Virus record (IMG/VR): IMGVR_UViG_3300022602_000039 | Span: 1-64,000 of that record | Strand: one strand, 5' to 3' | DNA length: 64,000 nt | Source: a virus | In this document: positions 431 to 31,291 of the stretch, one piece after another | How positions within the stretch are numbered: position 1 is the stretch's first letter | How the letters are laid out: every line of letters begins with the position of its first letter | Notes under the pieces: generated by a model | The model's database searches: none | Seen by the model: the letters and a program-made list of their open reading frames with translations, nothing else | Told to the model about the DNA's origin: nothing | Translations under genes and position numbers: made by a program

Positions 431-518
431 AAGAAAAAAAGGCCTCCGAAGCACTATTGTCTGTCATGAGCAATAAACTTACCTATAACTATGGTCACAG
501 GAAAGGTGCTTCGGAGGT
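431..518 (-). ncRNA. HNH-associated structured small RNA, copy 1
   Basis: Outer stem cctccgaagcac/gtgcttcggagg; inner hairpin with CAUA loop whose mismatches are G-U only on the minus strand; U-tract; 462-474 repeats 530-542. Confidence 0.7.
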
Positions 519-525
519 ATAAATA
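518..525 (+). promoter_or_regulatory. T4-like late promoter TATAAATA for the HNH gene
   Basis: Exact T4 late consensus 8 nt before the ATG; TAAATA is at the equivalent position in all family members. Confidence 0.6.
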
Positions 526-533
526 TATATGTC

Positions 534-1349
534 ATGAGCAATCAAACTACCACACAAGAACTCTCTAAAAATAATAAAAGTAAAGATAGAAATAGAGATT
601 ATTACTTACGTAATAAAGAGAAATTAGCAGCTGCAGCAAAAGAACGCTATATCAACAATAGAGAAAGCCGTTTAAAGTACGGTAAAGAATATTACTCAAA
701 AAATAGAGATAAACAAATAAAGTCTTCTACTGACTGTTATAAACGAAATAAAGAAAGACGCCTAGATCTAGCAAAAAAATGGTACCAACAAAATAGAGAT
801 GAGCAAAGAGCAGCTGCAATAGCTAATCATGAGAGAAATCGGGATAAACGTTTAGCACAAATGAAAATATACTGTGCTGAATATAAGAAATCCGGCAGAC
901 AGCGAGCGAAGCATAACGAATATTATAGTAGGAATAAAGAGCGAATTAAAGAATACACCCAAAATCACAGACTCGTTAATAAAGAAGAGATAAGCAAAAG
1001 ATTTAAATATAGGCGAACAAATGACTTACACTTTAAAATGGTTGGTATACTAAGATGTAGATTATTTGCAGCTTTAAGAAAACAAAAAACAAATAAAGAT
1101 ATCAAAACATTAGAATTATTAGGTTGTACTATTGAGGATTTTGTACAATATATTGAAAGACAATGGTTACCGGGTATGAACTGGGAAAACCATACAAGTA
1201 ACGGATGGCATATTGATCATATAAAACCATGCAACACGTTTGATCTAACCAATATAGAAGAGCAAAGGAAATGTTTTCATTATACTAATCTAAGACCTCT
1301 TTGGAGCTTTGATAATAGGTCAAGGCCGCATGATGGTAGCGATGTCTAA
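534..1349 (+). CDS. His-Me/HNH endonuclease with N-terminal 15-aa helical repeats
   Basis: GMNWEN-WHIDHIKPC-FDL-CFHYTNLRPLW motif; Y..N(K/R)E repeats. Confidence 0.85.
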   Translation: MSNQTTTQELSKNNKSKDRNRDYYLRNKEKLAAAAKERYINNRESRLKYGKEYYSKNRDKQIKSSTDCYKRNKERRLDLAKKWYQQNRDEQRAAAIANHERNRDKRLAQMKIYCAEYKKSGRQRAKHNEYYSRNKERIKEYTQNHRLVNKEEISKRFKYRRTNDLHFKMVGILRCRLFAALRKQKTNKDIKTLELLGCTIEDFVQYIERQWLPGMNWENHTSNGWHIDHIKPCNTFDLTNIEEQRKCFHYTNLRPLWSFDNRSRPHDGSDV

Positions 1350-1355
1350 AACACT

Positions 1356-1739
1356 TCAAGCTTCTTCTGAAAGAACCTTTTGAGCACAAGCTATGGCATC
1401 ATCAAGGTTATCAAACTCTTGACAATTTACAATCCACTTTGAAGGCTTTCTTCCTCTTCCTGCTACCTCTCTTCCACAATTATCAAGGATAAGAATCTCA
1501 CCAAGAGAAAACACAGGAAGTCTTACATCAATAATATCTTCTTTCGAGAGACCATCATTCTCTTCATCATCATAGACATCATAGAACCTATAAGCTTTGT
1601 AACCACAAGCATTAGCCATAGTCATATTATCTTCTTCTTTTTTTCTGTCTCTTACAAGAAGATCATCATACTTGTTCCCATCTTCGATATGCTTAGGAAC
1701 CCAAGTAATAACTCCAAATGTGTAATCTTTATTCTTCAT
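1356..1739 (-). CDS. Hypothetical protein, paralog of 14602..14976
   Basis: Near-identical translation; type-B promoter upstream. Confidence 0.75.
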   Translation of the reverse strand: MKNKDYTFGVITWVPKHIEDGNKYDDLLVRDRKKEEDNMTMANACGYKAYRFYDVYDDEENDGLSKEDIIDVRLPVFSLGEILILDNCGREVAGRGRKPSKWIVNCQEFDNLDDAIACAQKVLSEEA

Positions 1740-1744
1740 GCCTT

Positions 1745-1775
1745 TATACTATATGGATCCTTAGGACACTTCAAG
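1745..1775 (-). promoter_or_regulatory. Type-B repeated early promoter (TTGAAG-tgtcctaaggatccata-TAGTAT)
   Basis: 17-bp spacer, ATG a few nt after -10; copies near 5303-5333, 14360-14385, 14575-14606, 14980-15011. Confidence 0.7.
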
Positions 1776-2265
1776 CTTCTTCTTCTCCAAAGAACTTTAG
1801 ACCTTTGAGTTCTGCTAATGACTTTGCTGCTTGCTTTACTATTATAGTATTAAAAGATTCATCTTCAGCCTTTCCATATCTAAGATAAAGAGCTTGGAAC
1901 AGAGTTGCCAATCGAATAGCTTCATCTCTCTGTTCTTCTACTTTCTTCAACTCATCTCTCTCTTTAAGATACTTCAAACAGATTTGAGGAACAAACCTAC
2001 CAAGATCCTCTACTTCAGCATTCAAGTTAATATAATCAGAGACTTCATTCCACTGATTCATGACCTTTAGAGCTTCTTCTTTCCATTGTCTTAGCTCTTT
2101 ATTTGCATCTCTCAGATCATTAATCTCCCTCTCATCCTCTTGAGTCTTTACCCACAGAGCATCTTTCTCTAGCTTCAAAGCTTCAAACTGTTCAACAAAA
2201 CTCTTCATCTCTTGAACATCTTTTTTGATCTGTTTATGATCTTCTTTAATAAAATTGTGAATCAT
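1771..2265 (-). CDS. Coiled-coil hypothetical protein, chimera of 15933..16319 (N-term) and 15008..15808 (C-term)
   Basis: Segments match both genes, with the crossover in ALWVKTQEDEREIN. Confidence 0.75.
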   Translation of the reverse strand: MIHNFIKEDHKQIKKDVQEMKSFVEQFEALKLEKDALWVKTQEDEREINDLRDANKELRQWKEEALKVMNQWNEVSDYINLNAEVEDLGRFVPQICLKYLKERDELKKVEEQRDEAIRLATLFQALYLRYGKAEDESFNTIIVKQAAKSLAELKGLKFFGEEEA

Positions 2266-2274
2266 TATTACAGT

Positions 2275-2526
2275 CTATAGAGATTCTAAGGACAATTCAA
2301 GCTTTTTAATTTTATCCCTTAACTCTTTATTTACATCTCTCAGATCATTTATAATCCTCTCATCCTCTTGAGTTTTGACCCACAGAGCATCTCTTTCCAG
2401 CTGAACATCCTTTAGAGTCTTTGTCAATACAGACACAGACAACTCCAAATCAATATCATCATTCATATTCTTTATAGTCTCTGCTCCTCTAAGGATTTGA
2501 TTTATCTTATCTTGGTATCCAATCAT
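2275..2526 (-). CDS. Hypothetical protein with MIGYQDKINQ module and ALWVKTQED module
   Basis: ORF track; modules shared with 3948..4385 and 15008..15808. Confidence 0.6.
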   Translation of the reverse strand: MIGYQDKINQILRGAETIKNMNDDIDLELSVSVLTKTLKDVQLERDALWVKTQEDERIINDLRDVNKELRDKIKKLELSLESL

Positions 2527-2527
2527 A

Positions 2528-2764
2528 TTAATACCCCATATTAAGCTCTTGTGCCTGTTTAGTTAACTCATTTAAAGATTGCTTCTTTAGAATTCTCTCA
2601 AACCTATCCCAATCTGTCTCATAGATTCCAGAACCTCCATCCTCTCTTACTAGAACAGTTTGACCATAAATGAAGCTACACCAGAGTTTCTTCTCAACAT
2701 CATTGAGGATGCTGAAGATGTCTTCTTCTCTATAATGAGGATAGGGTTCTTTAATGAGTTCCAT
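2528..2764 (-). CDS. Hypothetical protein sharing the C-terminal ELTKQAQEL.MGY with 28718..28990
   Basis: ORF track comparison. Confidence 0.65.
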   Translation of the reverse strand: MELIKEPYPHYREEDIFSILNDVEKKLWCSFIYGQTVLVREDGGSGIYETDWDRFERILKKQSLNELTKQAQELNMGY

Positions 2765-2915
2765 TTTAGATATGCTTAAAACAAATTACTTCACCAGAGA
2801 TCAGATAATAGACATAGAGTGCTGCAATAGTTGCAATGACTGTATAAAAAAGGTTTTTAAGTTGTTTCATAATCTTATTATATATGCTTTAGGAGGAGGT
2901 GTCAAGAAAAGAATT

Positions 2916-3028
2916 TTTACTAAAATCTATTGTTTTTACTGATGAGTAAAAATTCATGTTTTCAGTAAACAATAAACTAGTTATATCACAGTAAACTAGG
3001 TAGATTTACTGTTACAAAGAGATTTACT
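2916..3028. repeat. Cluster of seven AGTAAA/TTTACT motifs in an intergenic AT-rich stretch
   Basis: TTTACT at 2916, 2935, 3005, 3023; AGTAAA at 2945, 2964, 2990. Confidence 0.45.
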
Positions 3029-3029
3029 A

Positions 3030-3254
3030 TTAAATTTCCTTTAATTGTTTGAGAATTTCTTTTTCTCTGTCCATAAGATCTTTCTTCTTTTTTAAGACTG
3101 CACTTGGACTGATGGAAAAATCTGCATCATGTGATGGATTTTTAAGCATCTTAAGCTTACTTTTTATCTGCATTAACTCACTATGTAAATCAGTCTTATT
3201 AGTAGATTCCATAATACTCTCAACTAAATCATCAAACTTCATATTATTTTTCAT
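3030..3254 (-). CDS. Small protein with MKFDDLVE motif (possible internal head protein)
   Basis: N-terminal motif shared with several late genes. Confidence 0.6.
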   Translation of the reverse strand: MKNNMKFDDLVESIMESTNKTDLHSELMQIKSKLKMLKNPSHDADFSISPSAVLKKKKDLMDREKEILKQLKEI

Positions 3255-3290
3255 AATCTTATTCTATATGCTTTAGGAGGAGGTGTCAAG
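3252..3290 (-). promoter_or_regulatory. Type-A repeated early promoter (TTGACA-cctcctcctaaagcata-TAGAAT-aagatt-ATG)
   Basis: Consensus -35, 17-bp spacer, near-consensus -10; copies near 2868, 3680, 4516, 6042, 11463, 15912, 16540, 17180, 17377, 21180, 23627. Confidence 0.85.
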
Positions 3291-3675
3291 CTTTTTCTTC
3301 AAACTTTCTGGTATTGACAACTGTGTGCTGTGCATTAGCTAATTGCTTTTCAATTTCAAGTCTCATTTTTGCTTCTTTATCAGCACCTTTAACTTTTTGC
3401 TTTTCTGCTTCTTCTAAATCTTTAACACTTATCCACTCAGCCTCTACACCATAATCCCAACCATCTCTATATCCAGCTTCATATCCTTTTATCCAGATAC
3501 TATATTTTAACCAAGGCATTCTAAAACCAAATTCTATAGGTCCAATTTTAAATAATCCAAAATTTGCATACCTAGTATAGTGACATTCAAACTCCACTTT
3601 ATCGGTAATGATGTTCTTAAAACCAGCCCACTTAAAAGTGAATAATGGTGATTTATGTAATTCAAATTTATTCAT
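3286..3675 (-). CDS. Hypothetical protein
   Basis: Start moved to MNKFE behind a type-A promoter; the stop is the TGA inside the next -35 box. Confidence 0.65.
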   Translation of the reverse strand: MNKFELHKSPLFTFKWAGFKNIITDKVEFECHYTRYANFGLFKIGPIEFGFRMPWLKYSIWIKGYEAGYRDGWDYGVEAEWISVKDLEEAEKQKVKGADKEAKMRLEIEKQLANAQHTVVNTRKFEEKA

Positions 3676-3947
3676 TGTTCCTATGGTATATGTTTTAGGA
3701 GGAGATGTCAAGCTTCTTTATGATAATTTCAAAGATATCTTCGTAACTTGGTGTATCAATAAAAAACGAATTTGCTTTATCGCCTTTTCTGTATACAAAA
3801 GTGCTTGATTGATGACAATCACATAAAGTGTCAAAAATCAATTCTTTTATATCCTCTTCAGTAAATTTGTTTTCTTCGTTCATAATCTTATTTTTTAGAA
3901 GGAGGTGACAAGAAAAATATTAAAAGGTATATTCAAAATGCCTTAAA

Positions 3948-4385
3948 CTACTCATTGTGGTTGTTTTCTTTGCTGTCAATATACTTTATAATCAATTCTC
4001 TTATTGCATCATCTGTACCTTTGCAAAGCTCTAAAATATCTTCATCAAGGTCTTCTCTATTATTTCTTTTGATACTGTTGTCTTTAGAAATCTCTTGTTC
4101 CATATTGTTTCTTTCTGTGTATAATTTGTACCACTTCTCATTCAGCTCTGGATCAATAGCATTTCCATATTCAAGAGCATCTATAATAGCATTAAAATCT
4201 CCATGACCAGCAGCATTAGCTATAGTCTCCAATGCATCAATAATCTTATTTTCATATATTTTATCCATAGCAACCTTATTATAGTGCTCCTTATCTTCTT
4301 CTGTTAAATTAGGTCTATTTGTCATATTCTTTATAGTTTCTGCTCCTCTAAGGATTTGATTTATCTTATCTTGGTATCCAATCAT
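3948..4385 (-). CDS. Hypothetical protein with MIGYQDKINQ module
   Basis: ORF track. Confidence 0.6.
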   Translation of the reverse strand: MIGYQDKINQILRGAETIKNMTNRPNLTEEDKEHYNKVAMDKIYENKIIDALETIANAAGHGDFNAIIDALEYGNAIDPELNEKWYKLYTERNNMEQEISKDNSIKRNNREDLDEDILELCKGTDDAIRELIIKYIDSKENNHNE

Positions 4386-4549
4386 GGTATTAATGAGTTA
4401 AAAATTTCCAATAGGCTAATGCTTTGATTAATTGAAAAGTAATTCCAATAAAAACTAATAAAAAAAGAACAGTCAATACAAATGATATATGTATAATGTC
4501 TTTGGTACTCTTCTTCATATTCTTATTCTATATGCTTTAGGAGGAGGTG

Positions 4550-5020
4550 TCAAGATCTAAATTGTTGAACACCAAATTTAGCTTCTTTAAGTTCTTTTAA
4601 AAATCTTGGATGAATATAACTAATTGATTTGTCTGGATAACATGATTCATCCTCATACTCTGCTCCACATTCAAAACAATAAGGAATTAAGTATTTGGTT
4701 TTAGATTCTAGTTTTTTGATTTCTTCCTTAAGTTCTGTATTCTCTTTTATAAGAGTCTTTCTGTCATATTCAAGTTCATGAACACTACATTGAGCACCAA
4801 ACTTTGAATTATCTAGTTCTTTCTTAAGCCTTTCAATTTCCTTTTCAAGCTCAATATTCTTGAAAATAGATTTAACAATGGCTTCTGCATATTGTTCTAA
4901 TTTATTCTTATCTCTAGACATCATATCACACTCTTTTTTTATAATTTCTATGATAGCATCATCAATATTTTTAGTTAAAAATAGAATTTCTTCATCCAGT
5001 TGATCAGTTTTGTTGTTCAT
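4550..5020 (-). CDS. Coiled-coil hypothetical protein
   Basis: ORF track, ATG start at MNNK; ends in a promoter -35 TGA. Confidence 0.6.
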   Translation of the reverse strand: MNNKTDQLDEEILFLTKNIDDAIIEIIKKECDMMSRDKNKLEQYAEAIVKSIFKNIELEKEIERLKKELDNSKFGAQCSVHELEYDRKTLIKENTELKEEIKKLESKTKYLIPYCFECGAEYEDESCYPDKSISYIHPRFLKELKEAKFGVQQFRS

Positions 5021-5150
5021 ATTTTGGGAATGTGGCAAACAATCTCAGCAAAAATCCAAGCCGATCCAGCGATAAGAAACATAATTATCGACGCTGTAAG
5101 AGCAAGGACAATAGCCCCGCCGCAAAAGGTTAAAAAATTTTTCATTTTTT

Positions 5151-5297: not shown

Positions 5298-5334
5298 ACC
5301 TTTATACTATATGGATCCTTAGGACACTTCAAGC

Positions 5335-5544: not shown

Positions 5545-6075
5545 ATTAATAAAGATTCTCTAGTCCCCAAGGATCATCTTTTGAATTCCATAAAGGAATC
5601 GAATCATATTCTTCTTTAGTCATATTATTTTAATAGAGTTCTATTGATGTTTTTCAATCTCTTCATTCAACCATTCCACTTGTAAAGATAAAAAATCTAC
5701 ATATTCTTTACTTGTAATTTTTTCATTTGCAAAAAGCTCATAAACAGGAGCTATAGCATCTTCAATCTGGGTACTAACATTATCAAATACTTTTGTAAAT
5801 TGTTTATTCATGATTTTTATATTCTATATGCCTAACTCATTTTTTCTACATATGTATGATAATACTCTAACAAATTAAGATATTGCTTTGAGCTATAATT
5901 GTATTTGTCATTGATTGGTACAATTATAAAATTGAAGTCTTTAAACTTAACAGCTTTTTTAAAGTATTCTTCAAATTCAGTTAAAGCAATGTCAGTTAAT
6001 TTTAATATTGATTGTTTTGTTATGTCTGTTAGTATTTCATTCATAATCTTATTCTATATGCTTTAGGAGGAGGTG

Positions 6076-6387
6076 TCAAGAAATCTTTCTCCAAGAAGTA
6101 ATTGTCTGAGTAACCTTTTTGTATTTGACTCCATCAATGATAACCTCATTAACATCTCCAGAAATGATTCTTTGAAAATCGTCCTCACAGATGTATTCTG
6201 ATTTGATTTCCTTTTTAGGTTTATCCACAGCATTACCATAGACCTTAGCATGACCATAGACCAGAGCATTACCATAGACCTTAGCATTACCATAGACCCT
6301 ATCATTACCATAGACCCAAGCATCACCAGAGACCTCAGCATTACCATAGACCCAAGCATCACCAGAGACCCTATGATGGTTCCGATA
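6076..6387 (-). pseudogene. Start-less fragment of a hexapeptide-repeat (VYGNAK) protein
   Basis: 18-bp tandem repeats read RVSGDAWVYGNAEVSGDAWVYGN...; C-terminus nearly identical to 23660..23902; no start codon after the upstream TAA. Confidence 0.7.
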
Positions 6388-8300: not shown

Positions 8301-8303
8301 AAA

Positions 8304-8984
8304 TTAACGAAGTTCATACCAATTACTAAACCCAGGCGTTTGAGAGGTCGTGATACTGTATGTACCACCTGCAGGTACAATAGCTGAAGTTGTAGATACG
8401 GGGTAGTAGGCATTAGACGATGATGTTACCCCAACAGTTACACCGTTTACAACTAAGATGAATCCCGCGCTCGCCGCTGCCGGTGATGTAACATTTACCA
8501 TAATTGGTCTATTTGTTGAATTAGTATACGTAGTATTTCGTGCTCTACTAGATGTTACATCTTGCCACGATTGAACTGAAGAGCCAATAGGAGCAGATGA
8601 TAATGTACTGCTATCGGAAAAGGTTATCCCTGCAGAACCAAAAGACATATACGTTGTATTACCTGCAATTGTTTGAATATAAATGGCGCCGGTATTACTC
8701 GGAATTCGTAAAGCAAGATTTGTTTGATCGCCAAAAAACCCTGTATTAACAATTCCGATTCCTGCAGTAGATCCAAATAATCCAGATCCACTAGATTGCA
8801 GTGTAGTTATATTAATAGCACCAGCACTTAAACTCGCACTACTCAAATTAGTTATGGTTGCAGTATTGGTATTTAAACTCGTAGTTGTCAGGTTACCAAA
8901 TGCGTTAACGGTCGCAGCTGTTGTACCATTAACTAGGATATATCCCTGAGGAGCTGTTTGATCTGCTTGTAAGGAAATTGACAT
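8304..8984 (-). CDS. Tail fibre-like virion protein
   Basis: Ser/Thr/Gly-rich; C-terminal WQDVTSSRARNTTYTNSTNRPIMV motif typical of phage fibres; TAAATA upstream. Confidence 0.65.
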   Translation of the reverse strand: MSISLQADQTAPQGYILVNGTTAATVNAFGNLTTTSLNTNTATITNLSSASLSAGAINITTLQSSGSGLFGSTAGIGIVNTGFFGDQTNLALRIPSNTGAIYIQTIAGNTTYMSFGSAGITFSDSSTLSSAPIGSSVQSWQDVTSSRARNTTYTNSTNRPIMVNVTSPAAASAGFILVVNGVTVGVTSSSNAYYPVSTTSAIVPAGGTYSITTSQTPGFSNWYELR

Positions 8985-9540: not shown

Positions 9541-9541
9541 A

Positions 9542-9817
9542 TTACAGAGTCTTAATTCTCTTTTGATTATCTCTATAGATAGTTAACGCTTCAATAATGG
9601 AATCAAGATTACAGTTATCAAAGATAATCTTTGTAGCAGGCTTTGGATTCCTATCAAAGTGACCGGGATCGGTATCTTCTATAGCAAACTCTGACCATTG
9701 TTCACCATTATCCTTATAAGGTCGAATGTGGAGAATCTGATTACTCTCTCGAGCATCGCTCTCAAAAAGCTCGACTTGGACAGTACTTGTAATTCTATTT
9801 CTATTTCTAGTTTGCAT
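9542..9817 (-). CDS. Hypothetical protein, paralog of 128..397
   Basis: High identity; same promoter context. Confidence 0.7.
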   Translation of the reverse strand: MQTRNRNRITSTVQVELFESDARESNQILHIRPYKDNGEQWSEFAIEDTDPGHFDRNPKPATKIIFDNCNLDSIIEALTIYRDNQKRIKTL

Positions 9818-9850
9818 ACATGCATAATAATGCATTTTCATTATGAAAGC

Positions 9851-9938
9851 AAGAAAAAAAGGCCTCCGAAGCACTATTGTCTGTCATGAGCAATAAACTT
9901 ACCTATAACTATGGTCACAAGAAAGGTGCTTCGGAGGT
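9851..9938 (-). ncRNA. HNH-associated structured small RNA, duplicate of copy 1
   Basis: Identical to 431..518 except one change that gives a U-G pair on the minus strand. Confidence 0.7.
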
Positions 9939-9953
9939 ATAAATATATATGTC

Positions 9954-10088
9954 ATGAGCAATCAAACTACCACACAAGAACTCTCTAAAAATAAGAAAAG
10001 TAAAGATAGAAATAGAGATTATTACTTACGTAATAAAGAGAAATTAACAGCTACAACAATTCCAGTTGTATCCTTTTCAATAGTATAG
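9954..10088 (+). pseudogene. Truncated HNH endonuclease (first ~31 codons of the 534..1349 gene)
   Basis: MSNQTTTQELSKNKKSKDRNRDYYLRNKEKL, then unrelated sequence and a stop. Confidence 0.8.
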
Positions 10089-10155
10089 TGACTGATATGA
10101 CCTTTAAGAGACATTCCTTAATACTATAGGCATTCTATGGACTAGTCAAGATTTT

Positions 10156-10416
10156 TTACCCAATTAAATTCACATCACTATAATAATGACCAAACTCACT
10201 TAAAAAGGATTCAACTTTTTTAGAATCAGTAATACCTGTTCTTCTGATTAAATCTAAATCTAATTTTCTAACAAGCTCCTTAGCAGCCTCTTCTGTTCTA
10301 CAGACTGCTTTAAATTCATCATTATTTTCGCTGGAGCTAAATACTACAAAAACCTTATTGTCTATATCTTCATTAACAATATTCATATAAGCTTCTGTCA
10401 ATTTGTCAAACTTCAT
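10156..10416 (-). CDS. Late small protein with MKFDKLTE motif
   Basis: TAAATA-ataat-ATG context. Confidence 0.65.
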   Translation of the reverse strand: MKFDKLTEAYMNIVNEDIDNKVFVVFSSSENNDEFKAVCRTEEAAKELVRKLDLDLIRRTGITDSKKVESFLSEFGHYYSDVNLIG

Positions 10417-10607
10417 ATTATTATTTATCTTTTTATTCCTTTTTGTATGTGAAATAATGTACTTCATGCTCTGCATAAGCTGCAAAGCTCTTATTACACT
10501 CATCACATTCTACTTCAATAGTATCATTATGCCCTCTAAAATGCTCAAAAGAATCTCCACTCTCATGACCACAATAAGGACAAACTACTTCATCAGTATA
10601 GCTACAA

Positions 10608-11036
10608 TCAATTTCCTTTTCCATATTTCTCCTTTGTTCTATCAAAAGCATTATTATACACTACCTCAATAGGATTACCATCACATCCTAGATACTTTCC
10701 ATTCTCATCAAAGAGCTTATGGAACTCATCAATGATCATCTCATTCTGATAAACATCCCTTGCATACCATTCACCATATTTGCAACCATGTTTCCAAAGA
10801 GAATTCTCTACACTACAGCATCCTTCCTCACCACAGCTTTCACAAACTGGGCAATAAGGGCTTTCTCCAATGTCAATGTCATCTTCTTCCATGTTTATAA
10901 TTCTTGTATTTTGTTCTGAATAATGTTCCTTAATAGCCTTTTCAGCATCTTCATATGAATTATACTCAATACCATCTATAAAGCTCCAGCAATTACTAAA
11001 GTATCTTTGAATTCTAAAATGCTTCATATTAACCAA
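10608..11036 (-). CDS. Cys-containing hypothetical protein
   Basis: ORF track, in an overlapping operon. Confidence 0.6.
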   Translation of the reverse strand: MVNMKHFRIQRYFSNCWSFIDGIEYNSYEDAEKAIKEHYSEQNTRIINMEEDDIDIGESPYCPVCESCGEEGCCSVENSLWKHGCKYGEWYARDVYQNEMIIDEFHKLFDENGKYLGCDGNPIEVVYNNAFDRTKEKYGKGN

Positions 11037-11498
11037 AAATTACTTTGCCATTATACACAATATCCCAAGGATCTAATTCAAAGTCTCTTTCAGCTTTAAT
11101 ATAGCAATCAGCAATATAGAGACTCTTAAGTGATCTGATATACTCTGACATCTGCATAATCTGATCCAATGCCTTTAGTCCACAGCCAATAGTAATCTCT
11201 TCTTTCTTCTCTTTGATTAGGAGACCTAAAAGAGACTCTCTGATTGCAATCTTTTGTGGTATCCAATTCATATTAGTCATTCATATACCTCCTCATATAT
11301 CAGAGGAAAATTGGTATCTGATACAATGATTAGCTCTGATGTAACCTTTCCAAGACTTTCCCTAGTCTCATTACCATTAAGAATTTTATTAAGATAAACA
11401 ACACCATTTTCCTTTCTATCAAATGATACTAGTTCATTAGTGTCTTTGTTTTTATATGTCTTCATAATCTTATTCTATATGCTTTAGGAGGAGGTGTC

Positions 11499-11581
11499 AA
11501 GAAGAACCTCCGGGATACGATTGTCTGTCATGATCAATATAATACAAACAGCTATGGCTGTAAGAAATGTACCCCGGAGGC
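11499..11581 (-). ncRNA. HNH-associated structured small RNA, copy 2
   Basis: Stem cctccgggatac/gtaccccggagg (G-U on minus); hairpin acagc-tatg-gctgt; 11527-11536 repeats 11594-11603. Confidence 0.7.
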
Positions 11582-11596
11582 ATAAATAATTTAGTC

Positions 11597-12385
11597 ATGA
11601 TCACAAATAATACCACGCAAGAATCGTCTGTTGACGAAAAGATATTAAAACACAAAGAAGCTAAAAGAGAGTATTATAGGCAATACGCTTTAAAAAAGAA
11701 AGCTCTTAATCCAAATCATTACAAGGATTGGTATCAAAGAAATAGAGAACGTATTCGTAGTGATGAAGAGAGAACAAAAAGAACTAAAGAATACACTAAA
11801 CAATGGTATCAAGAAAATAGAGAACGCGAATTAAAGAAAGCAAAAGAATATCAAAAGAATAATAGAGAAGTGAGAAGCGAATATGTAAGAAATTGGCTCA
11901 AAGCCAATCCTGACAAATATGAAAAGCATTTAGAAAGCACCACAGAATGGATAAAGAAAAATAAAAAAAGAATAAGAAGCCGTACAAACAAAAAATATCA
12001 AACAGATCCCCAGTATAAGCTTAGCAATACATTAAGAACCCGTATTAATCATGCTGTAAAAAATCATAACGTATGTAAAAGTGCTTCTACTATGAAGCTT
12101 GTAGGGTGTGATATAACTACTTTAAAAGAGCATATCGAATCACAATTCGTAGAGGGAATGAGTTGGGATAACTACAACCATAAAACATGGCATATAGATC
12201 ATATCAAGCCGTGTAATGCTTTTGATTTATCGGATCCTGAGCAGCAAAAACAATGCTTTCATTATACCAATTTGAGACCTCTTTGGGCTACAGATAATTT
12301 AAAAAGACCTAAGGATGGTCGCGATGTTCTTTTGGACGAATCGCCGCTGTCACCCTTATTACCCATTGAGATTCAGTCTCACTAA
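11597..12385 (+). CDS. His-Me/HNH endonuclease
   Basis: WHIDHIKPC...CFHYTNLRPLW; start moved to MITNNTTQES after TAAATA. Confidence 0.85.
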   Translation: MITNNTTQESSVDEKILKHKEAKREYYRQYALKKKALNPNHYKDWYQRNRERIRSDEERTKRTKEYTKQWYQENRERELKKAKEYQKNNREVRSEYVRNWLKANPDKYEKHLESTTEWIKKNKKRIRSRTNKKYQTDPQYKLSNTLRTRINHAVKNHNVCKSASTMKLVGCDITTLKEHIESQFVEGMSWDNYNHKTWHIDHIKPCNAFDLSDPEQQKQCFHYTNLRPLWATDNLKRPKDGRDVLLDESPLSPLLPIEIQSH

Positions 12386-13004
12386 CATCCCAGAGAAGAT
12401 TAACAATCTCTGACTTCTCTCCTCTTGGCAAATTAGGCATAGCTTTATCAATGCTCTTCCAAATATCACTCCAATCAGCTGTGTCCTTATTCTCAATAGC
12501 ATTAGCAATCTTCTTCCAAAGCTTCTTAGGGATCTTAAAGTCCTTATGCTCAATTGCTCCTTGAACTACAGGCAAAGGAACACCAGTGTGTGAGTGCGGA
12601 GCGTCGAAATCCCTTGTATAGTCTGCCCATCCGTCGTTCCTCTTAAAAGCTTTGTACCTTCTAAGAGTTTTTTGAACTTCATATCCAAGAGTAGCATCGC
12701 CTACCTTCTCTTGATTGTAAATACCCCAAGAAGCGTCGAGATGACCTCCAAGGTCTGGATCCTTAAAGAGAGTATCTCTTATAAATTTATGACAAGCCCT
12801 CCTATCCTCATAATCGATACAATGATCGAAAGCTTCGCTCAAAGCATAATCAACCTGGCCCAAGCGTAAGCGCTGATACACCTCTAACGCACGGATTATT
12901 ACGTTTAGGTGTTCCTCTTGAAATTCTACAACAACCGGTTGACGTACCTTTTCTTTATAGCTTTTGGCAGCTGCTTTAAGAGTCTTTGCGGCTTTCTTAT
13001 TCAT
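12309..13004 (-). CDS. Hypothetical protein
   Basis: TTGCCG-17-TATTAT promoter before MNKKA; N-terminal fragment duplicated near 14250-14350. Confidence 0.7.
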   Translation of the reverse strand: MNKKAAKTLKAAAKSYKEKVRQPVVVEFQEEHLNVIIRALEVYQRLRLGQVDYALSEAFDHCIDYEDRRACHKFIRDTLFKDPDLGGHLDASWGIYNQEKVGDATLGYEVQKTLRRYKAFKRNDGWADYTRDFDAPHSHTGVPLPVVQGAIEHKDFKIPKKLWKKIANAIENKDTADWSDIWKSIDKAMPNLPRGEKSEIVNLLWDVSETESQWVIRVTAAIRPKEHRDHP

Positions 13005-13037
13005 ACACCTATAATACATGATATCGTAGGCATCGGC

Positions 13038-13121
13038 AAGAAGAAACTCCTAGGCGTTGTTGGAACTGCGATGAACACAAACACAAACCGTAGAATGTAT
13101 ACGGAAAGAACGCCTAGGAGC
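13038..13121 (-). ncRNA. HNH-associated structured small RNA, copy 3
   Basis: Stem ctcctaggcgtt/aacgcctaggag; hairpin ccgta/tacgg; 13067-13077 repeats 13133-13143. Confidence 0.7.
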
Positions 13122-13136
13122 ATAAATATTTATGCG

Positions 13137-14003
13137 ATGAACAACACAACTCAACAACCGTCTACTGTAATAACCAACTGCTTATACTGCAGCAAAGAGT
13201 TTTCTTTTTACCCTCCTTCGCGTAATAGAAGATATTGCTCACGAAAATGTTCGGGGATTCATGCAGCAAGTAAGCGACCATCATTAACCGTAACAGCTAA
13301 CTGTAAAATCTGTAATAAAGAGTTTTCTTTCTTCCAGTGCAAGAAAGCAAAATATTGCTCAATGGCGTGTCGTGCGAAAGGTAGAATAAAGCCAGGTACT
13401 GCAGAACGCAAAAAACAATATGTTTTGGAGCATAAAGAATATCACAGTATAAAGTCTAAAGAGTGTTACGAGAGAAATAAAGAAAGATATAAAGAAAAAG
13501 GTAAAGAAAGGCGTAAGGATCCAGAGTACAAAAAACGAACAGCAGAGTATCAAAGAAACTATCTCAAAGATCCTAAGACTAAAGAGCGCATGAAAGAGTA
13601 CTATAAGGAATATAACGAGCTAACAAAAGATCGTAGAAACGAACTTACTAGAGCTTTATATAGAAAATATATTAAAGATCCAAAGCATAAGATAAAACGT
13701 AAGCTACGTAATAGATTATACAGTGCGTTAAAAGCTAAAAACGCTGAGAAACAATTAAGTGCTATAGCTCTTGTTGGATGCTCTATAGAAGATCTAAAGA
13801 AGCATATAGAATCCCAATGGTTACCAGGGATGACTTGGGAGAATCATACTATAAATGGTTGGCATGTTGATCATATAATGCCTTGTAATACATTTGACTT
13901 AACCAATATAGAAGAACAAAAGAAATGCTTTCACTATACTAATCTGAGACCTCTCTGGGGACCTGATAATGTATCCAGGCCCCATGATGGTAGTGATCTT
14001 TAG
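13137..14003 (+). CDS. His-Me/HNH endonuclease with two N-terminal CxxC..YCS.xC zinc fingers
   Basis: WHVDHIMPC...CFHYTNLRPLW; start moved to MNNTTQQPS. Confidence 0.85.
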   Translation: MNNTTQQPSTVITNCLYCSKEFSFYPPSRNRRYCSRKCSGIHAASKRPSLTVTANCKICNKEFSFFQCKKAKYCSMACRAKGRIKPGTAERKKQYVLEHKEYHSIKSKECYERNKERYKEKGKERRKDPEYKKRTAEYQRNYLKDPKTKERMKEYYKEYNELTKDRRNELTRALYRKYIKDPKHKIKRKLRNRLYSALKAKNAEKQLSAIALVGCSIEDLKKHIESQWLPGMTWENHTINGWHVDHIMPCNTFDLTNIEEQKKCFHYTNLRPLWGPDNVSRPHDGSDL

Positions 14004-14242
14004 GACACTTCAAACTCTTCAATATAAGCATGAGCTTCACTAACAAGATCTTCTTTGCTCATCTTAAGATAAGGATTCATACTTTTGTTCTTCTTGAGTA
14101 AAATCTCATTTACAACAAAATTAATAGCATTATTCTTTTCAGCAAAAATCTTATAAACACTAGGAGTATCAAACTCCCCTGTACCATCAAATACAACATA
14201 CACTTTATTCATAAAACTTTCAACTAGTTTATCAAACTTCAT
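14000..14242 (-). CDS. Late small protein with MKFDKLVE motif
   Basis: TAAATA-ataat-ATG; KVYVVF segment resembles 10156..10416. Confidence 0.65.
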   Translation of the reverse strand: MKFDKLVESFMNKVYVVFDGTGEFDTPSVYKIFAEKNNAINFVVNEILLKKNKSMNPYLKMSKEDLVSEAHAYIEEFEVS

Positions 14243-21750: not shown

Positions 21751-21785
21751 TACTAATAATACTATAGACAGAAGCAGGAAAGAGC

Positions 21786-21872
21786 AAGATAAAAAGGTCT
21801 CCAGGTGCTGTATCTTCTGCAATGAATGATCACACAACTCGTAGTATGTATACGAAAAGAGCACCTGAAGAC
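21786..21872 (-). ncRNA. HNH-associated structured small RNA, copy 4
   Basis: Stem gtctccaggtgct/agcacctgaagac (U-G on minus); hairpin tcgta/tacga; 21818-21830 repeats 21884-21896. Confidence 0.7.
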
Positions 21873-21887
21873 ATAAATATATATGCA

Positions 21888-22106
21888 ATGAATGATGATT
21901 TAACCACACAAGAACTGTCTAAAAAGGAAGAAAAAGATAAGCAATACTTTCGTAATTGGTATTTAGCTAACAAAGAACGTTTAGCTAAAATGGGAAAAGA
22001 GAGGAGACAAAGGACCGAAAATAAGGAAAGATCTCGTGTTTATTGCGCTAAGAAAAGAGCTACTACAGAACACAAACAATACATGAGAGAGTATTTAGAA
22101 GTATAG
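21888..22106 (+). pseudogene. Truncated HNH-family gene (N-terminal repeats only)
   Basis: MNDDLTTQELS start and WYLANKE repeat; no nuclease domain. Confidence 0.7.
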
Positions 22107-26233: not shown

Positions 26234-27568
26234 TTATTTTTCTCCTCGTTCTATTTTATATACATTGCATGGACAAATCCACTTTTTTTCTTTTTGAAAT
26301 TCATTAGGATGTATTTTTGAAAGTGATTCGGTAAATTCTGTAGTTCTCTTTAAAAGCTCTTCAGCATCAAACTCTACCTCTCTCTGCTTTGCTTGAACAG
26401 CATCCTGCATAGCAACTTTAGTTGTACTCCATTTCTCAACCTGCTTTTCATCTAAAGGATCTTCACTATTAAGTTCAGATTCAACAAACTCCTTAATGTT
26501 CTTATCATAAACACTCCAATGAATAGGGTACATAGGATGCTTTTGTTCTTCTGTCTTCTCGATCATTAATCCTTCTTTACAGAAGCCACAACCACCAAAG
26601 TAATTAGTATCATGAGCTACTTTATAGCCACACTTGTTACAGACATAACTGGTTTCAGTTCCATCATACGAATTACCCTCTACAGGATCTTCACTATTAA
26701 GTTCAGATTCAACAAACTCCTTAATGTTCTTATCATAACCACTCCAATGAATAGGGTACATAGGATGCTTTTGCTCTTCTGTCTTCTCGGATACATAATC
26801 AACAATATCATCCTCTAGCTTTTTAATCTGAGCTTTCTGCTCATCAATAGTACTCTTACCACCTTCAATAATTTTATGAAGAGCTGTAACTTGAAGATTT
26901 AACTTTTCATTCTCCTCTTTAAGAGCCTTAACTTCTGTATGCCAATTAGTGCTCATTTCATTAATCTCGCTTCTTAGCTCTTCATTAATCTTTTTGAGAA
27001 CAATAACATCATAGTCAAGTGAGTGATTTATTAGATCATCACTAAACTTAGAATCATCGAATTTCTTCTTCAATGCTTCAATCTCTTTATTAGCTGCATT
27101 GAGCTGATGCTTAAATTCATCTCTTTCTTGAGAACACTTCTTATAATTGTTCTGAACAATCTGAAGCTTTGCTTCCATATACTTCAAACCACCCATTGTA
27201 ACAAAACCATTATACTTCTCAAGAAGTTCAGTGTTTCTATTCTTCAACACAGCATAGTCATTCTTAAGAGTAAAGAGCTGATCCTGTAGATCTCTATTTA
27301 CATCACTATCAATCTCATTAACTCTTTCCATCAACTCAACATTCTCTTTCTTGAGATGTCTAAGACCATTAACTTCTTTTACAAGCTCATCAACAGTATC
27401 TGCTTTTTCATCATATAACTTTCTCCAATTTTTATTGCCTATTTTCCAGCCTTCAAGCTCATTCTTAAGCCCTTGATTCTCAGTTAAGAGCTTTCCTATA
27501 AACTGTGTGAGCTCATCAGTTGGTGCACAATTACCAGGACCACCAAACTTTGAAAATAAATTGAACAT
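26234..27568 (-). CDS. Long coiled-coil protein with an internal 106-bp duplication flanking a zinc ribbon
   Basis: Heptad pattern; repeats 26456-26561 and 26684-26789. Confidence 0.75.
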   Translation of the reverse strand: MFNLFSKFGGPGNCAPTDELTQFIGKLLTENQGLKNELEGWKIGNKNWRKLYDEKADTVDELVKEVNGLRHLKKENVELMERVNEIDSDVNRDLQDQLFTLKNDYAVLKNRNTELLEKYNGFVTMGGLKYMEAKLQIVQNNYKKCSQERDEFKHQLNAANKEIEALKKKFDDSKFSDDLINHSLDYDVIVLKKINEELRSEINEMSTNWHTEVKALKEENEKLNLQVTALHKIIEGGKSTIDEQKAQIKKLEDDIVDYVSEKTEEQKHPMYPIHWSGYDKNIKEFVESELNSEDPVEGNSYDGTETSYVCNKCGYKVAHDTNYFGGCGFCKEGLMIEKTEEQKHPMYPIHWSVYDKNIKEFVESELNSEDPLDEKQVEKWSTTKVAMQDAVQAKQREVEFDAEELLKRTTEFTESLSKIHPNEFQKEKKWICPCNVYKIERGEK

Positions 27569-29336
27569 ACCTAAATGATATATTCATTTTAAATGATGTC
27601 AAGATTTAAATTTTGCTTTTATCTTTTTAATAAAAGCTTCTATCTCTGGAATAAAACAAACTACAAGAAATAAGCCAAACAAGGATATAGCTATAGATAA
27701 CAGTACTAAAAATATAACTAAAAGTAGATGCATAAATTAAATTTCGTAAAACCAACTCTTCTTAAACTTCTCAAACTCTCTTATCCATATATTAAACTTT
27801 CTAAGTCTTCTACCAGCCTTTCTGCCCTTCTTCTTTACTTTCTTTAAACCCTTAAAGATCATTAAAAAGAACAATAACATACCTACAGCAAACAAACCCA
27901 TTGTTACATGACCAATGAGTGTAAAGGGATCCATATTATTATTTAATATATCTCCTTATACTCTATATAGCTCTCTAAAATTTCATCTTCAAATTTAAAC
28001 TGAAGACAGCTCTTGCCTTCATGCATATATCTCTGAATAGCTGTAACCTGAGATAAAGGAACCCATTGTTCAATATCTTCTACCCATACACAAGCTATCT
28101 TTACACCATGCATAAAAGTATTTAATACATCTCGTTAGGAACAAGTTCTAAGACTTTCTTTCTAACTTCTTCTAATTGTTCAAGGTTATACTTCTCATGC
28201 TGATCCCATTCAAGGTCACCATAATGCTCAACATACCAAGCCAATTCATCTAGAATTGAGTTCTTTAAAAGCTTAATCAATTCCACCTGACACTCTTCAT
28301 AGGTATCAAAACTTGTCTCTTCATATCTAGGATTAACAAAACCATGATGAGCTACTGTCCACTGACCAGGTTTCCCATATGAAAAGGTCTGTGTTATATA
28401 GAAATGACAATCTCTATCCTTATGCCAAGAGCCACCACTTAAAATAGAAAGATACCAAATTTCATTTAATTCGGCAATTTTATCTAGATTGGTCATAATC
28501 TTCATAAGGATATTCTGTTTCTAGTACTGAATTTACATCAATGTCCATATCAATTTTAATAGGTTTTCCTACTATGTGATTGCTTTCATCAACTGCTCTA
28601 ATAATAATAAATCTAGGATTAGTTATAGACTTTTGAACCATACCTGCACCAATAATGTGTATTACATCATTGCCTATACCACCATCTGAATCATACTCTA
28701 CTCTTACTGCTTTCATATTAGTATCCCATATCAAGCTCTTGAGCCTGTTTTGTTAATTCATCTAATGACCCAGCCCTTTCTTCTTTCCATATAAGGTTTA
28801 AAATATGGTCCTGAAAAGTTGTATAGTCATAAGCATAAATCTCCCATTCATCAAAGCCTGCATCCTGAACTGTCTTACCTCTCATATAATTCTCCCACAA
28901 AGGGATTAACTCTTCAGGTAGAGCTCTTAGAATATCTTTTTCAAAGATACATCCATTTTCATTGGCTCTAAGATTAGGTGCTTGTTTCATATTAATCCCT
29001 CCTCTCTCAAAACTTTATTAATGATCTCAGGATCACTGTTTTCAGCTCTCCTTTTTCTTCGCTCTTCTCTAGTCTTATCAGCTTTGGGTGTGTATAGAAG
29101 ATTCCAGAACTTAGCATTAATGAGCTCTTGTTGTCTTTTATCAGACAACTCTCCATTCCCAGATCTGTGTGAATAAGACCAAGCATCAGCATTCTGCACA
29201 AGCTCTTGAATAGCTAGATTGTCCATACAACAAACAGCCATATTAATCTTATGCAAGAATGCCTCATACACTTTAACTTTTTGTTTTAGGGTTGGATTCT
29301 TCATTTCCTATATAGTATAGAAAATTCAAGGACAAA

Positions 29337-29756
29337 TCAAGCTAAATATTCTAGTCCTTCAATATATTTTTTCTTTTGTTTTTCAGATGGTGTATCATTA
29401 AGATTATATTTCATATCAGCAATCTTCACAGCCCTAGCAATAGGATTGTTTTTTATTGAAGAAAGATACATCATATAATCTATTCCCTTTGTCTTTGTTA
29501 ATCTGTTTACAGCATCAACAACTTTATCAGGCATTCCAATTTTTGACAAGTCATTAAGATTATAACTTGTATCCTCTACAACATCATGAAGATATGCAGC
29601 TGCAATATTTTCTGGAGTCTGAGGCTGAACAGATCTTGCCACACCATCTACATGATTAAAGTATGATGTTTTACCATCCCTGCGAAATTGACCTGTATGA
29701 GCCATTTGTGCAAAATTTCTAGCTGTTACAATTAACTCAAGCCCTTTTTCTTTCAT
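29337..29756 (-). CDS. HD-domain (p)ppGpp hydrolase-like protein (SpoT/Mesh1 small alarmone hydrolase type)
   Basis: AHTGQFRRDGKTSYFNH, AAYLHDVVEDT, VKIADMKYN. Confidence 0.8.
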   Translation of the reverse strand: MKEKGLELIVTARNFAQMAHTGQFRRDGKTSYFNHVDGVARSVQPQTPENIAAAYLHDVVEDTSYNLNDLSKIGMPDKVVDAVNRLTKTKGIDYMMYLSSIKNNPIARAVKIADMKYNLNDTPSEKQKKKYIEGLEYLA

Positions 29757-29768
29757 TTTAATATTTAA

Positions 29769-30434
29769 TTAATTTACTTCTGGTTTATGATGATCAAATG
29801 TTATCTGATCATAGGTTCTAAATTTAGCTCTAAGCTCCCCAAATGAAATAGGCTCAGGACAAACCTCTACTCCTACATCTATTGTTTTTGCTTTATAAAG
29901 AAGTTTTCCTAGCTCAGACTTATAAAGATTGCCATGGGAGTGACTATGAAGATGCCAGGCTCCTTTATGCTGACCATTCCAAGTAGCCTGAGCATAATGA
30001 TTAAGAACTATAGCCTGTCCATTCACTACAACCTCTAGATAGTTTGGAACAAAATGAATCAGCTTCTCATGACCATCAACATTAAGAACATTCTCATGCA
30101 ATGAATCAAAGATCTGCTTATATCCAGCCTGATGGTTACCAGGGAGAATATAGAGCTCTTTAAAGTTAAGTCTGTTAAAAAGCTTCAATAGCCTCTCATC
30201 AGCCTTATAGCCAAAGATAGTGTCACCTAGAAGGAAACCAATAGTGTTCTTATTAGCTTTTGTGTTCCAGTTCTTAATCAGACCCTCATCATGCTCAGCT
30301 GAGCTGTTATAACCTCTAGTCTTCCAGATAGGTATATCCCATTTTGGGTCATGACCATAATGTAAGCAGCCTTGGAAGAGCACATCATGATCCTTAGCAG
30401 TAATCTTAACAGGTTTATAGAAGTACTCTTTCAT
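29769..30434 (-). CDS. Calcineurin-like metallophosphoesterase
   Basis: CLHYGH, LGD, GNH, HSH and DVGVE motifs; start moved to MKEYF behind TTGCGT-17-TACAAT. Confidence 0.8.
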   Translation of the reverse strand: MKEYFYKPVKITAKDHDVLFQGCLHYGHDPKWDIPIWKTRGYNSSAEHDEGLIKNWNTKANKNTIGFLLGDTIFGYKADERLLKLFNRLNFKELYILPGNHQAGYKQIFDSLHENVLNVDGHEKLIHFVPNYLEVVVNGQAIVLNHYAQATWNGQHKGAWHLHSHSHGNLYKSELGKLLYKAKTIDVGVEVCPEPISFGELRAKFRTYDQITFDHHKPEVN

Positions 30435-30469
30435 TACGACCGATTGTAAGAGCTTATTGTGGAATACGC

Positions 30470-30556
30470 AAGCAGGAAAGGCTCTCAAGGTGCGATCGTC
30501 AGTCATGAACAATATAATACCAACTGGCTATGGCCAGGGAAATGCACCTTGAGAGC
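30470..30556 (-). ncRNA. HNH-associated structured small RNA, copy 5
   Basis: Stem gctctcaaggtgc/gcaccttgagagc; hairpin ctggc-tatg-gccag; 30501-30510 repeats 30568-30577. Confidence 0.7.
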
Positions 30557-30571
30557 TTAAATATTTAAGTC

Positions 30572-31291
30572 ATGAACGTAACTAATACCACACAAGAACT
30601 CTCTACACGAAGAGAAAAAAGTAAAGAATATTACCGTAAGTATAGAGAGCGGATTAGAGCTTGGAGTAAGGCTCATATAGAAGCTAACAAAGAACGTTAC
30701 AATGCATCATCTCGGGAATATCACCATAAAAATAAAGAGAAGTGTAATTTAGCGTGTAAAGAGTACGATAAAAAGCATAAAGAAGAGCTTAAGCAAAAAA
30801 GAGCTGAACAATACAGACTTAATAAAGCGAAAATGTCTAAAAAGCGTAGTGAAGAGTATTTTGCTAATCACGAGGAAAATAAAAGAAAAGCAAGAGAGAA
30901 GAGAAACGCTAATAAAGAAATACGAAACAAAAAACGTAAAGAGCGTTATAAGACAGACATACAATATAAACTTTCAAATCTTATACGTGTTCGCATATAC
31001 AGCGCAATAAAACAATCGCAAGCAAAAAAGTGCGAAAAGGTTGAATATCTTATAGGTTGCAGTCTTGCAGTGTTAAAGTCACATCTTGAAGCTCAATTCG
31101 AACCTGGTATGAATTGGAATAATAACACTCAATATGGTTGGCATATTGATCACATTATACCTATATGTACTTTTGATCTTCAAGATACGGAACAACAAAA
31201 AACATGCTTCCATTATTCTAATTTACGCCCTCTATGGGCTATAGATAATCTATCAAGACCAAAGAACGGTAGCGATGTATATTCAGACTAA
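30572..31291 (+). CDS. His-Me/HNH endonuclease with 15-aa repeats
   Basis: WHIDHIIPI...CFHYSNLRPLW. Confidence 0.85.
   Translation: MNVTNTTQELSTRREKSKEYYRKYRERIRAWSKAHIEANKERYNASSREYHHKNKEKCNLACKEYDKKHKEELKQKRAEQYRLNKAKMSKKRSEEYFANHEENKRKAREKRNANKEIRNKKRKERYKTDIQYKLSNLIRVRIYSAIKQSQAKKCEKVEYLIGCSLAVLKSHLEAQFEPGMNWNNNTQYGWHIDHIIPICTFDLQDTEQQKTCFHYSNLRPLWAIDNLSRPKNGSDVYSD

Follow-up and report, generated by a model that had tools for sequence, protein, structure and literature searches.

In IS10/Tn10, the small antisense RNA known as RNA-OUT pairs with the translation start region of the mRNA for the transposase (RNA-IN), blocks ribosome binding, and acts in trans on other copies (PMC5006887), and in the type I toxin-antitoxin pairs tisB/istR-1, zor/orz, and shoB/ohsC, a divergently encoded small RNA beside its target blocks translation through a short complementarity, which is 21 nucleotides (nt) long in the case of IstR-1 (PMC4147584). 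We describe here a structured element of ~85 to 97 nt that lies immediately upstream of the ATG of each of six nuclease genes or gene remnants in IMG/VR virus record IMGVR_UViG_3300022602_000039, on the strand opposite the gene, and whose interior repeats the start of the gene that it precedes. The window analyzed is the first 64 kb of this single viral contig of 130,033 bp, which has a G+C content of 35% and is rated ~60% complete by CheckV; the minus strand holds most of its genes, and the nuclease genes lie on the plus strand. We propose, with a probability that we put at about 0.6, that the element is the gene of a divergently encoded antisense RNA that would block the 5' end of the nuclease message.

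Homing endonucleases are, to our knowledge, the commonest selfish genes of large phages, and the means by which they are restrained from harming their carrier are known for only a few cases, those of T4. As set out in PMC2988022, T4 homing endonuclease genes are controlled by hairpins that hide the ribosome site and by late promoters, and I-TevI represses its own synthesis. The cassettes described here would serve the same aim of a low and late supply of a selfish nuclease, with a late promoter directly before the gene, but the T4 structures in that account are on the sense strand and hide a Shine-Dalgarno sequence, whereas here the fold is on the opposite strand of genes that are mostly devoid of such sites; the wobble pairs fall on that opposite strand, and the purine run is situated upstream of the promoter motif. 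In cyanophage S-PM2, CfrI, an antisense RNA of ~225 nt, is encoded in cis between psbA and an endonuclease gene (PMC12197685); like the RNA proposed here, it is associated with the gene of a homing endonuclease in a phage, but it is a single case, whereas the structure found here is a portable module with its loop reset for each gene. The HEARO RNA, or omega RNA of IscB, is a structured RNA beside genes encoding an HNH domain. The present element has no match in Rfam. HEARO is large, lies on the gene's own strand, and serves as a guide. In c4 of P1 and P7, the loops of a small structured phage RNA pair with the translation start of a linked target, and specificity is set by matching changes; c4 and its target derive from one transcript, from which c4 is processed, and an antirepressor is under its control, whereas the target here is a nuclease.

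The likeness to IS10 is that a mobile element's own small antisense RNA would be directed against the start of the message for its DNA-cutting enzyme. Pairing between RNA-OUT and RNA-IN begins between a loop and a 5' end. RNA-OUT, however, overlaps its target and is complementary to it by position, over 35 nt, whereas the two genes here are divergent and do not overlap: the element ends 12 to 16 nt before the ATG, the word within it that repeats the gene start (the anti-start word) lies 66 to 68 bp upstream of the start word in the gene, and complementarity to the element's own translation start, found in 15/15 copies, comes from a second copy of the start, ~68 bp away, held in a three-way-junction RNA and facing a homing endonuclease message that is probably near-leaderless. 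With the divergent type I systems, the cassettes share a small RNA gene that adjoins its target, divergent orientation, and short complementarity, and the label "type I antitoxin-like" given in a first-pass annotation of the sequence is an analogy; the targets of those pairs are small hydrophobic peptides, however, whereas the target here is a nuclease-like protein of 239 to 288 amino acids (aa), and IstR-1 is described as acting at a standby site in a long leader rather than at a 5' end that includes the start codon. The module is a member of neither class, because it does not overlap its target gene and that target is not a small toxic peptide. No description of a module of this kind, a structured antisense RNA accompanying free-standing homing endonuclease genes, came up in our literature search, CfrI of S-PM2 being the nearest case; over ten thousand candidate phage RNAs are listed in PMC10690425, the main text of which makes no mention of such a motif, although its supplements may contain it.

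Fold and strand of the element

The first-pass annotation had named six plus-strand start codons (534, 9954, 11597, 13137, 21888, and 30572) as each being preceded by an element, and all six are present with the element upstream; a covariance model (CM) built from the copies recovers every one of them, invariably on the strand opposite the gene. In the element, read on the minus strand, an outer stem of 12 bp is followed by a linker rich in U (CUUUC, AUUUC, or CUUUU), a hairpin of 5 to 8 bp, a short third hairpin whose 11- to 15-nt loop contains the antisense of the start codon, the closing strand of the outer stem, and a U-rich tail; the fold is a three-way junction made up of the outer stem and two hairpins. 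The order of outer stem, linker, hairpin, variable strand, and U-rich tail that had been read from the sequence is confirmed, with these amendments: part of the strand regarded as variable forms the third hairpin, of 3 to 4 bp, and the CAU reported in the hairpin loop is found in the window copies and is missing from four copies outside it (L001, L005, L087a, and L095).

Element 1 (429 to 526; 46.4 bits) has its outer stem at 443-454/506-517, its hairpin at 482 to 501, its anti-start word at 462 to 474, and its U-rich tail at 431 to 442, and element 2 (9849 to 9946; 44.8 bits) is nearly identical to it, the sole change giving a G-U pair in the hairpin. The outer stem of element 3 (11494 to 11589; 33.9 bits) is formed by 11507-11518/11569-11580, with one G-U pair on the minus strand, and its anti-start word is at 11527 to 11536; the corresponding parts of element 4 (13033 to 13129; 108.9 bits) are 13047-13058/13109-13120 and 13067 to 13077, with the hairpin at 13088 to 13104. 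Element 5 (21784 to 21880; 119.1 bits) has an outer stem at 21798-21809/21860-21871, again with one minus-strand G-U pair, and an anti-start word at 21818 to 21830, and element 6 (30468 to 30564; 37.1 bits) has these features at 30482-30493/30544-30555 and 30501 to 30510. All six elements lie on the minus strand. When the entire contig was scanned for stems, the architecture turned up at no place other than these six.

Alignments made with MAFFT placed the stems out of register, and the first model was therefore built from four gap-free copies and all copies were realigned to it; pairs were counted on 15 distinct rows, and the counts lean to the model structure, mainly for the short third hairpin. 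Paired cells amounted to 97.3% of the total, against 67.0% in shuffled alignments, none of 500 of which attained the observed value, and against 32 to 41% in slid controls, in which partners were moved by one to three columns. Changes on both sides were present in 20/20 pairs: in 12/12 pairs of the outer stem, in which 100% of the cells are paired; in 5/5 pairs of the hairpin; and in 3/3 pairs of the third hairpin, with 91% of its cells paired in an alignment fitted to the model. Covariation is thus strong, and from these sequence comparisons we consider the structure of the element to be under selection. Among the 295 cells, 277 are Watson-Crick pairs, 10 are G-U on the minus strand, none is G-U on the plus strand (A-C on minus), and 8 are unpaired; 7 of the 10 G-U cells are in the outer stem, where the alignment is secure. 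The folding energy is lower on the minus strand in 13/16 distinct copies, frequently by a small margin. The wobble count of 10 to 0 and the folding energies place the fold on the strand opposite the nuclease gene, as had been argued earlier from the mismatches between copies.

In a search of the whole window with Rfam 15, the gathering score was passed by tRNAs only, and at E values up to 5 over positions 1 to 32000, the sole match to an element was mir-44 (E value, 3.7; 19.9 bits against a gathering score of 54); the impression that this is not a known RNA family therefore stands, with no Rfam family, HEARO included, giving a match. A small open reading frame (ORF) in the element was considered and rejected as coding, since its upstream ATG yields peptides that differ in length and frame.

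Match to the gene start and promoter geometry

The five words first quoted as being shared by element and gene each occur, over both strands of the entire contig, only within the element and at the adjacent gene start (462/530, 11527/11594, 13067/13133, 21818/21884, and 30501/30568), the first also being duplicated at 9882/9950, and their chance expectation is 0.005 to 0.29 per word. When the interiors of 15 copies were compared with positions -5 to +28 of every gene, 15/15 were found to repeat the cognate start (about -4 to +10) exactly, for 10 to 17 nt. The longest common word averaged 12.7 nt for cognate and 6.8 nt for noncognate combinations, and the mean predicted duplex energies were -24.4 and -13.8 kcal/mol, respectively; the cognate gene was surpassed only by near-identical relatives, in word length for L006 and L094 and in energy for L001, L006, and L102. 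The match begins at -4 in 10/15 copies and at -1 to -5 in the rest, beside the predicted transcript start. Where the start codon is GTG, as in L005, GTG is also present in the element, and in two orthologous cassettes at the same site (that at 13137, designated e13137, and L001) the starts differ and the elements differ alike. Two further copies, L171 and L223b, likewise track their own starts, and both remnants that are without a nuclease domain retain perfect repeats; the claim that the variable strand tracks the adjacent gene start has held in all 15 copies tested.

A second match of 7 to 9 nt, also anticipated in the first-pass annotation as a short match following a bulge, is present in many copies and falls in the conserved codons of an N-terminal peptide, (N)TTQELS. 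The gap that precedes it differs by 0 to 8 nt between element and gene, and, as far as sequence can tell, a two-part match with a variable spacer fits a bulged RNA duplex better than a protein-binding site. In the 12/17 copies that were scorable, the predicted unpaired probability is higher for the seed (0.51 to 0.71) than for the remaining RNA (0.30 to 0.42), which would make the seed the more accessible part.

The geometry of the promoters places the match to the gene start at the probable 5' end of the message. Of 207 crude ORF calls, 35 have TAAATA 5 to 10 nt upstream of their ATG (for example, those at 38004 to 41699 and 8304 to 8984, both on the minus strand), and the motif occurs only 14 more times at all other distances up to 54 nt; the largest genes are among those with the motif. 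GGAG is found 4 to 11 nt upstream in only 7/207 calls, and Shine-Dalgarno motifs are rare. It seems from this that the phage runs largely on leaderless or near-leaderless messages throughout its genome, in agreement with the earlier suggestion that the nuclease messages are leaderless. The nuclease genes follow the late (TAAATA) pattern, with an 8-nt gap: in the start region of paralog 1 (518 to 542, plus strand), the TATAAATA motif occupies 518 to 525 and is separated by an 8-nt spacer from the ATG at 534, with the start word at 530 to 542. If its start point resembles that of T4 late promoters, the nuclease message would begin ~3 nt ahead of the AUG, at the place where the complementarity sets in. 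An ATAAATA-like heptamer is found on the minus strand, 6 nt ahead of the outer stem (7 nt in the cassette at 11597), and the sequence immediately ahead of element 4 is CATAAATA plus 6 nt; the heptamer is exactly ATAAATA in 2/17 copies and TTAAATA or ATAAGTA, variants that also occur on the plus strand of these cassettes, in 3 more, and in the other 12 it deviates at one or more bases.

A second, early-type promoter of ~35 nt is near-invariant, with TTGACA, a 17-nt spacer containing CCTCCTCC, and TAGAAT; the window has six or more copies of it (2877 to 2905, 3261 to 3289, 3683 to 3711, 4525 to 4553, 6051 to 6079, and 11472 to 11500, all on the minus strand), and it ends 6 nt upstream of an ATG, a distance that again suits leaderless messages. 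The last of these copies, a sigma-70-like promoter of the next minus-strand gene, comes right after the U tail of element 3. At least six U residues are present in the first 9 nt past the stem in 15/17 copies, and the CUUG that follows each U tail belongs to the next early promoter, as its -35 box. Early promoters away from the cassettes have no preceding stem, which indicates that stem and tail came with the cassette. Between the outer stem and the ATG, the sequence forms a partial palindrome (CATAAATATTTATG), at 13121 to 13134, at 30556 to 30569, and at 1305 to 1318 of L001, with mirrored changes in the cassette at 30572 and in L001 and an imperfect symmetry in most copies; it may represent two overlapping promoters or a hairpin.

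We suggest that each cassette comprises two genes arranged back to back, with a short promoter region rich in A+T between them. A TAAATA-type promoter on the plus strand, 8 nt upstream of the ATG, would give an almost leader-free message starting near -3, and on the minus strand, an RNA of ~85 nt would start at or just before the outer stem and end at the U-rich tail, the stem and U tract acting as a terminator. This RNA would fold as the three-way junction, with the loop of the third arm and the adjacent strand forming the antisense of the first 10 to 17 nt of the cassette's own message, start codon included, and a second stretch of ~7 to 9 nt may pair further into the first codons, past a bulge. 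Such pairing would cover the 5' end that the ribosome needs on a leaderless message, and synthesis of the nuclease would be held low, paralog by paralog.

Spread of the module and alternative explanations

Homologs of the nuclease-like protein are far more widespread than the element, which is present in 4 of the 80 best viral loci encoding a homolog and in 8 of the 80 best metagenome loci, with nine matches in the latter; 148 of these 160 loci with HNH-like homologs are without the RNA. Among the relatives, every match is opposite in strand to the gene. Whole-record and pattern searches added three matches, one in L171 and two in L223, of which L171 and L223b are new distinct copies. Two loci with atypical layouts, L084 and L099, were missed by the model: in L084 (G001:C1, ~41.4 to 41.6 kb), a 10-bp stem lies ~110 nt before the ATG with no clear match to the start, and in L099 (37 to 170), the parts are in a different order, with a 13-nt match to the gene's own start. 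In L171 (~1480 to 2500, element and gene together; G004:C1, near 67.5 kb), the element heads a LAGLIDADG_3 gene (E value, 3.2e-8, above the curated cutoff) that also encodes a helix-turn-helix and, at its N terminus, TTRELS, a close variant of the conserved motif. The association of the module with a LAGLIDADG gene indicates that what moves as a unit comprises the RNA gene together with the promoter region and the first dozen codons, and it argues for a portable control module over a guide specific to one protein.

Several observations weigh against the antisense reading. A search with positions 9800 to 14100 for RNA sequencing runs containing this region listed none. The minus-strand promoter is weak or uncertain, 12/17 copies deviating from the motifs seen on the plus strand, and mismatches in the predicted intermolecular duplex show no preference for changes that wobble pairing would tolerate (3 tolerated and 2 not tolerated, with 14 transversions). 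The third hairpin is short and draws its support from an alignment fitted to the model, and to this must be added the atypical layouts of L084 and L099, the former without a clear match to its start. Read-through on the minus strand out of the upstream gene would in itself yield antisense to the entire nuclease gene and may make an additional anti-start copy redundant, unless the small RNA is differently timed or more stable, and RNA and message would both be late, which obscures the logic of timing.

A different explanation, which we regard as unlikely, is that the structure is an insulating terminator and that the direct repeats are DNA operators through which the cassette's nuclease represses its own synthesis, as I-TevI does. 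On this account, the minus-strand structure, brought in by the cassette, would halt transcription that crosses the nuclease gene in antisense, ahead of the next early promoter, and this would accord with the GC-rich stem followed by a U tract, with the TTGACA -35 box that comes immediately after it, and with the absence of any such structure from the other early promoters of the region. I-TevI autorepression is reported to act via an operator that overlaps the late promoter of I-TevI and resembles its homing site (PMC2988022), and paralog-specific DNA-binding proteins would also make both sites change together. The stem and U tract are those of a candidate intrinsic terminator, although the stem closes a junction of ~50 nt; a scan with a terminator consensus, which covered loops of 3 to 8 nt, flagged only the inner hairpins and gave a total of 7 against 6.4 in shuffles. 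A simple hairpin would suffice for termination, however, whereas here covariation extends to two inner hairpins and a conserved linker. The operator part is at odds with the repeat being placed within a conserved RNA fold, at its loop and junction, with a spacer between the two parts of the match that varies by 0 to 8 nt and would be awkward for a protein site, with the identical layout of cassettes for two unrelated nuclease folds, HNH-like and LAGLIDADG, and with the perfect repeats kept by the two remnants that have no nuclease domain.

The first-pass annotation had offered as its alternative that the RNA is a guide bound by the protein. In this form, a guide or bridge RNA held by the nuclease or a partner would use its variable loop to direct the protein to matching DNA or RNA, in the service of homing or copy choice and not of expression control, and in its favor is a programmable loop in a conserved scaffold beside a nuclease gene; guide RNAs are known beside HNH-bearing transposon nucleases (PMC10055086), and the long, helical, basic N-terminal part of the modeled protein could bind nucleic acid. 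The loop, however, matches only the cassette's own start in the 130-kb contig, so a guide would target the element itself, and the occurrence of the module ahead of a LAGLIDADG gene, the 148/160 loci that encode the protein without such an RNA, and the lack of a match to HEARO or any other Rfam family weaken this explanation to the point where we find it very improbable. Least credible is a sense-strand leader, in which the outer stem of a longer plus-strand message would hide a purine-rich ribosome site (GGAGG or AGGAG) until late transcripts start inside it, as in the scheme described for T4 homing endonucleases (PMC2988022), for although in most copies the 3' strand of the outer stem, read on the plus strand, has GGAGG, AGGAG, or a similar sequence at its end, the wobble cells fit the minus strand only (10 to 0), the promoter motif is downstream of the purine run so that late messages would not contain it, Shine-Dalgarno motifs are rare ahead of the genes of this phage, a direct repeat cannot pair within one strand, and no plus-strand promoter was seen upstream. 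What probability remains we reserve for an explanation that we have not thought of.

The nuclease genes and what the module may do

By tblastn, the nuclease family is represented in the window by four full paralogs (534 to 1346, 11597 to 12382, 13137 to 14000, and 30572 to 31288), two 5' remnants with partial matches (9954 to 10058 and 21888 to 22004), and a C-terminal piece (1 to 129), all on the plus strand. Paralog 1 (534 to 1349; 271 aa) has an HNH-like C terminus; paralog 2 (11597 to 12385; 262 aa) has its start word at 11594 to 11603; paralog 3 (13137 to 14003; 288 aa), with its start word at 13133 to 13143, carries a Cys-rich insert close to the N terminus; and paralog 4 (30572 to 31291; 239 aa) has its start word at 30568 to 30577. 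In the first remnant (9954 to 10058), 35 codons resemble the family and are followed by unrelated sequence, and in the second, a truncated gene of 72 aa (21888 to 22106; start word, 21884 to 21896), the resemblance is limited to the first ~39 aa; full-length partners of this second remnant (21784 to 22106 with its element) occur in other phages (L002 and L006). The piece at 1 to 129 is the end of a further paralog interrupted by the start of the contig, and metagenome contig L087, which is 98% identical, shows this paralog with an element of its own. The (N)TTQELS peptide is encoded from the first codons at 534 to 570, 11597 to 11640, 13137 to 13170, 21888 to 21925, and 30572 to 30610; it accompanies the RNA module, homologs without the module lack it, and its conservation could serve pairing, the protein, or both.

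Some rearrangements were seen around these genes. A stretch of ~260 bp is duplicated at 380 to 640 and 9800 to 10060, 9.4 kb apart, and takes in the last part of a gene on the minus strand, the element, and 105 bp from the start of the nuclease gene, after which the second copy stops and gives way to unrelated sequence. The ORF of paralog 2 overlaps by 76 nt (12309 to 12385) with the last part of the convergent gene at 12309 to 13019, and this overlap gives it an 18-aa tail that is absent from the other paralogs. Three viral loci encode a relative of that convergent gene without an element (top CM match, E value of 0.39); their neighbors are unlike those of the window, and the exact borders of the cassette are not readable from them. 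A blastn search of positions 400 to 1400 against a phage collection gave no match, and a PHROG scan of six proteins neighboring the nucleases returned no named function; Pfam Gp23 was matched neither in the contig nor in the control genomes.

The nuclease protein itself gave no match in Pfam, NCBIfam, or PDB-sequence searches, and the family is without a Pfam or NCBIfam model despite hundreds of relatives in viral and metagenome collections. PHROG gave weak matches to endonuclease VII and HNH families (E values, 2.6e-7 to 3e-3), and among 44 homologs, D228, H229, and N252 are invariant and N261 is nearly so. An AlphaFold2 model of paralog 1 based on these homologs (predicted local distance difference test score, 95) shows long helices across residues 12 to 183, the N-terminal 170 residues being predicted to form long helical hairpins made of basic repeats, and a C-terminal beta-beta-alpha unit (strands 225 to 229 and 253 to 257; helix 258 to 263) that surrounds D228-H229 and N252. 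In fold comparisons of residues 150 to 271, nearly all matches were to HNH-type domains, all of them weak (top matches, Z of 3.4 and root mean square deviation of 2.9 to 3.9 over 66 to 74 residues; Foldseek E value, 0.36), and Foldseek returned nothing at an E value of 0.001 or better. The name HNH given to these genes at the outset thus has no backing from Pfam or NCBIfam and agrees with weak PHROG and fold matches; we call the protein HNH-like, its membership of the family being unproven.

A further idea, which we hold to be rather doubtful, is that the module is a portable and resettable unit of immunity and restraint for selfish nucleases. An RNA acting in trans would let a genome that has only the RNA gene and the first codons silence the nuclease of a coinfecting relative and so escape cutting and invasion; this would explain why both remnants, with their elements (9849 to 10058 and 21784 to 22106), retain an intact fold and a perfect start match, and homing in phage populations would then be an arms race conducted via antisense RNAs.

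If the antisense reading as such is correct, a lineage of uncultured lake phages would use a compact RNA module that can move between unrelated nuclease genes and that takes on a new specificity by no more than a copying of a gene's first bases into a loop. It would constitute an RNA family new to Rfam and a natural, modular antisense switch for leaderless messages, present as sets of non-cross-reacting variants within one genome. Such a switch would be at home in this phage, the promoter geometry of which suggests, across the genome, an almost complete and unusual reliance on leaderless messages.

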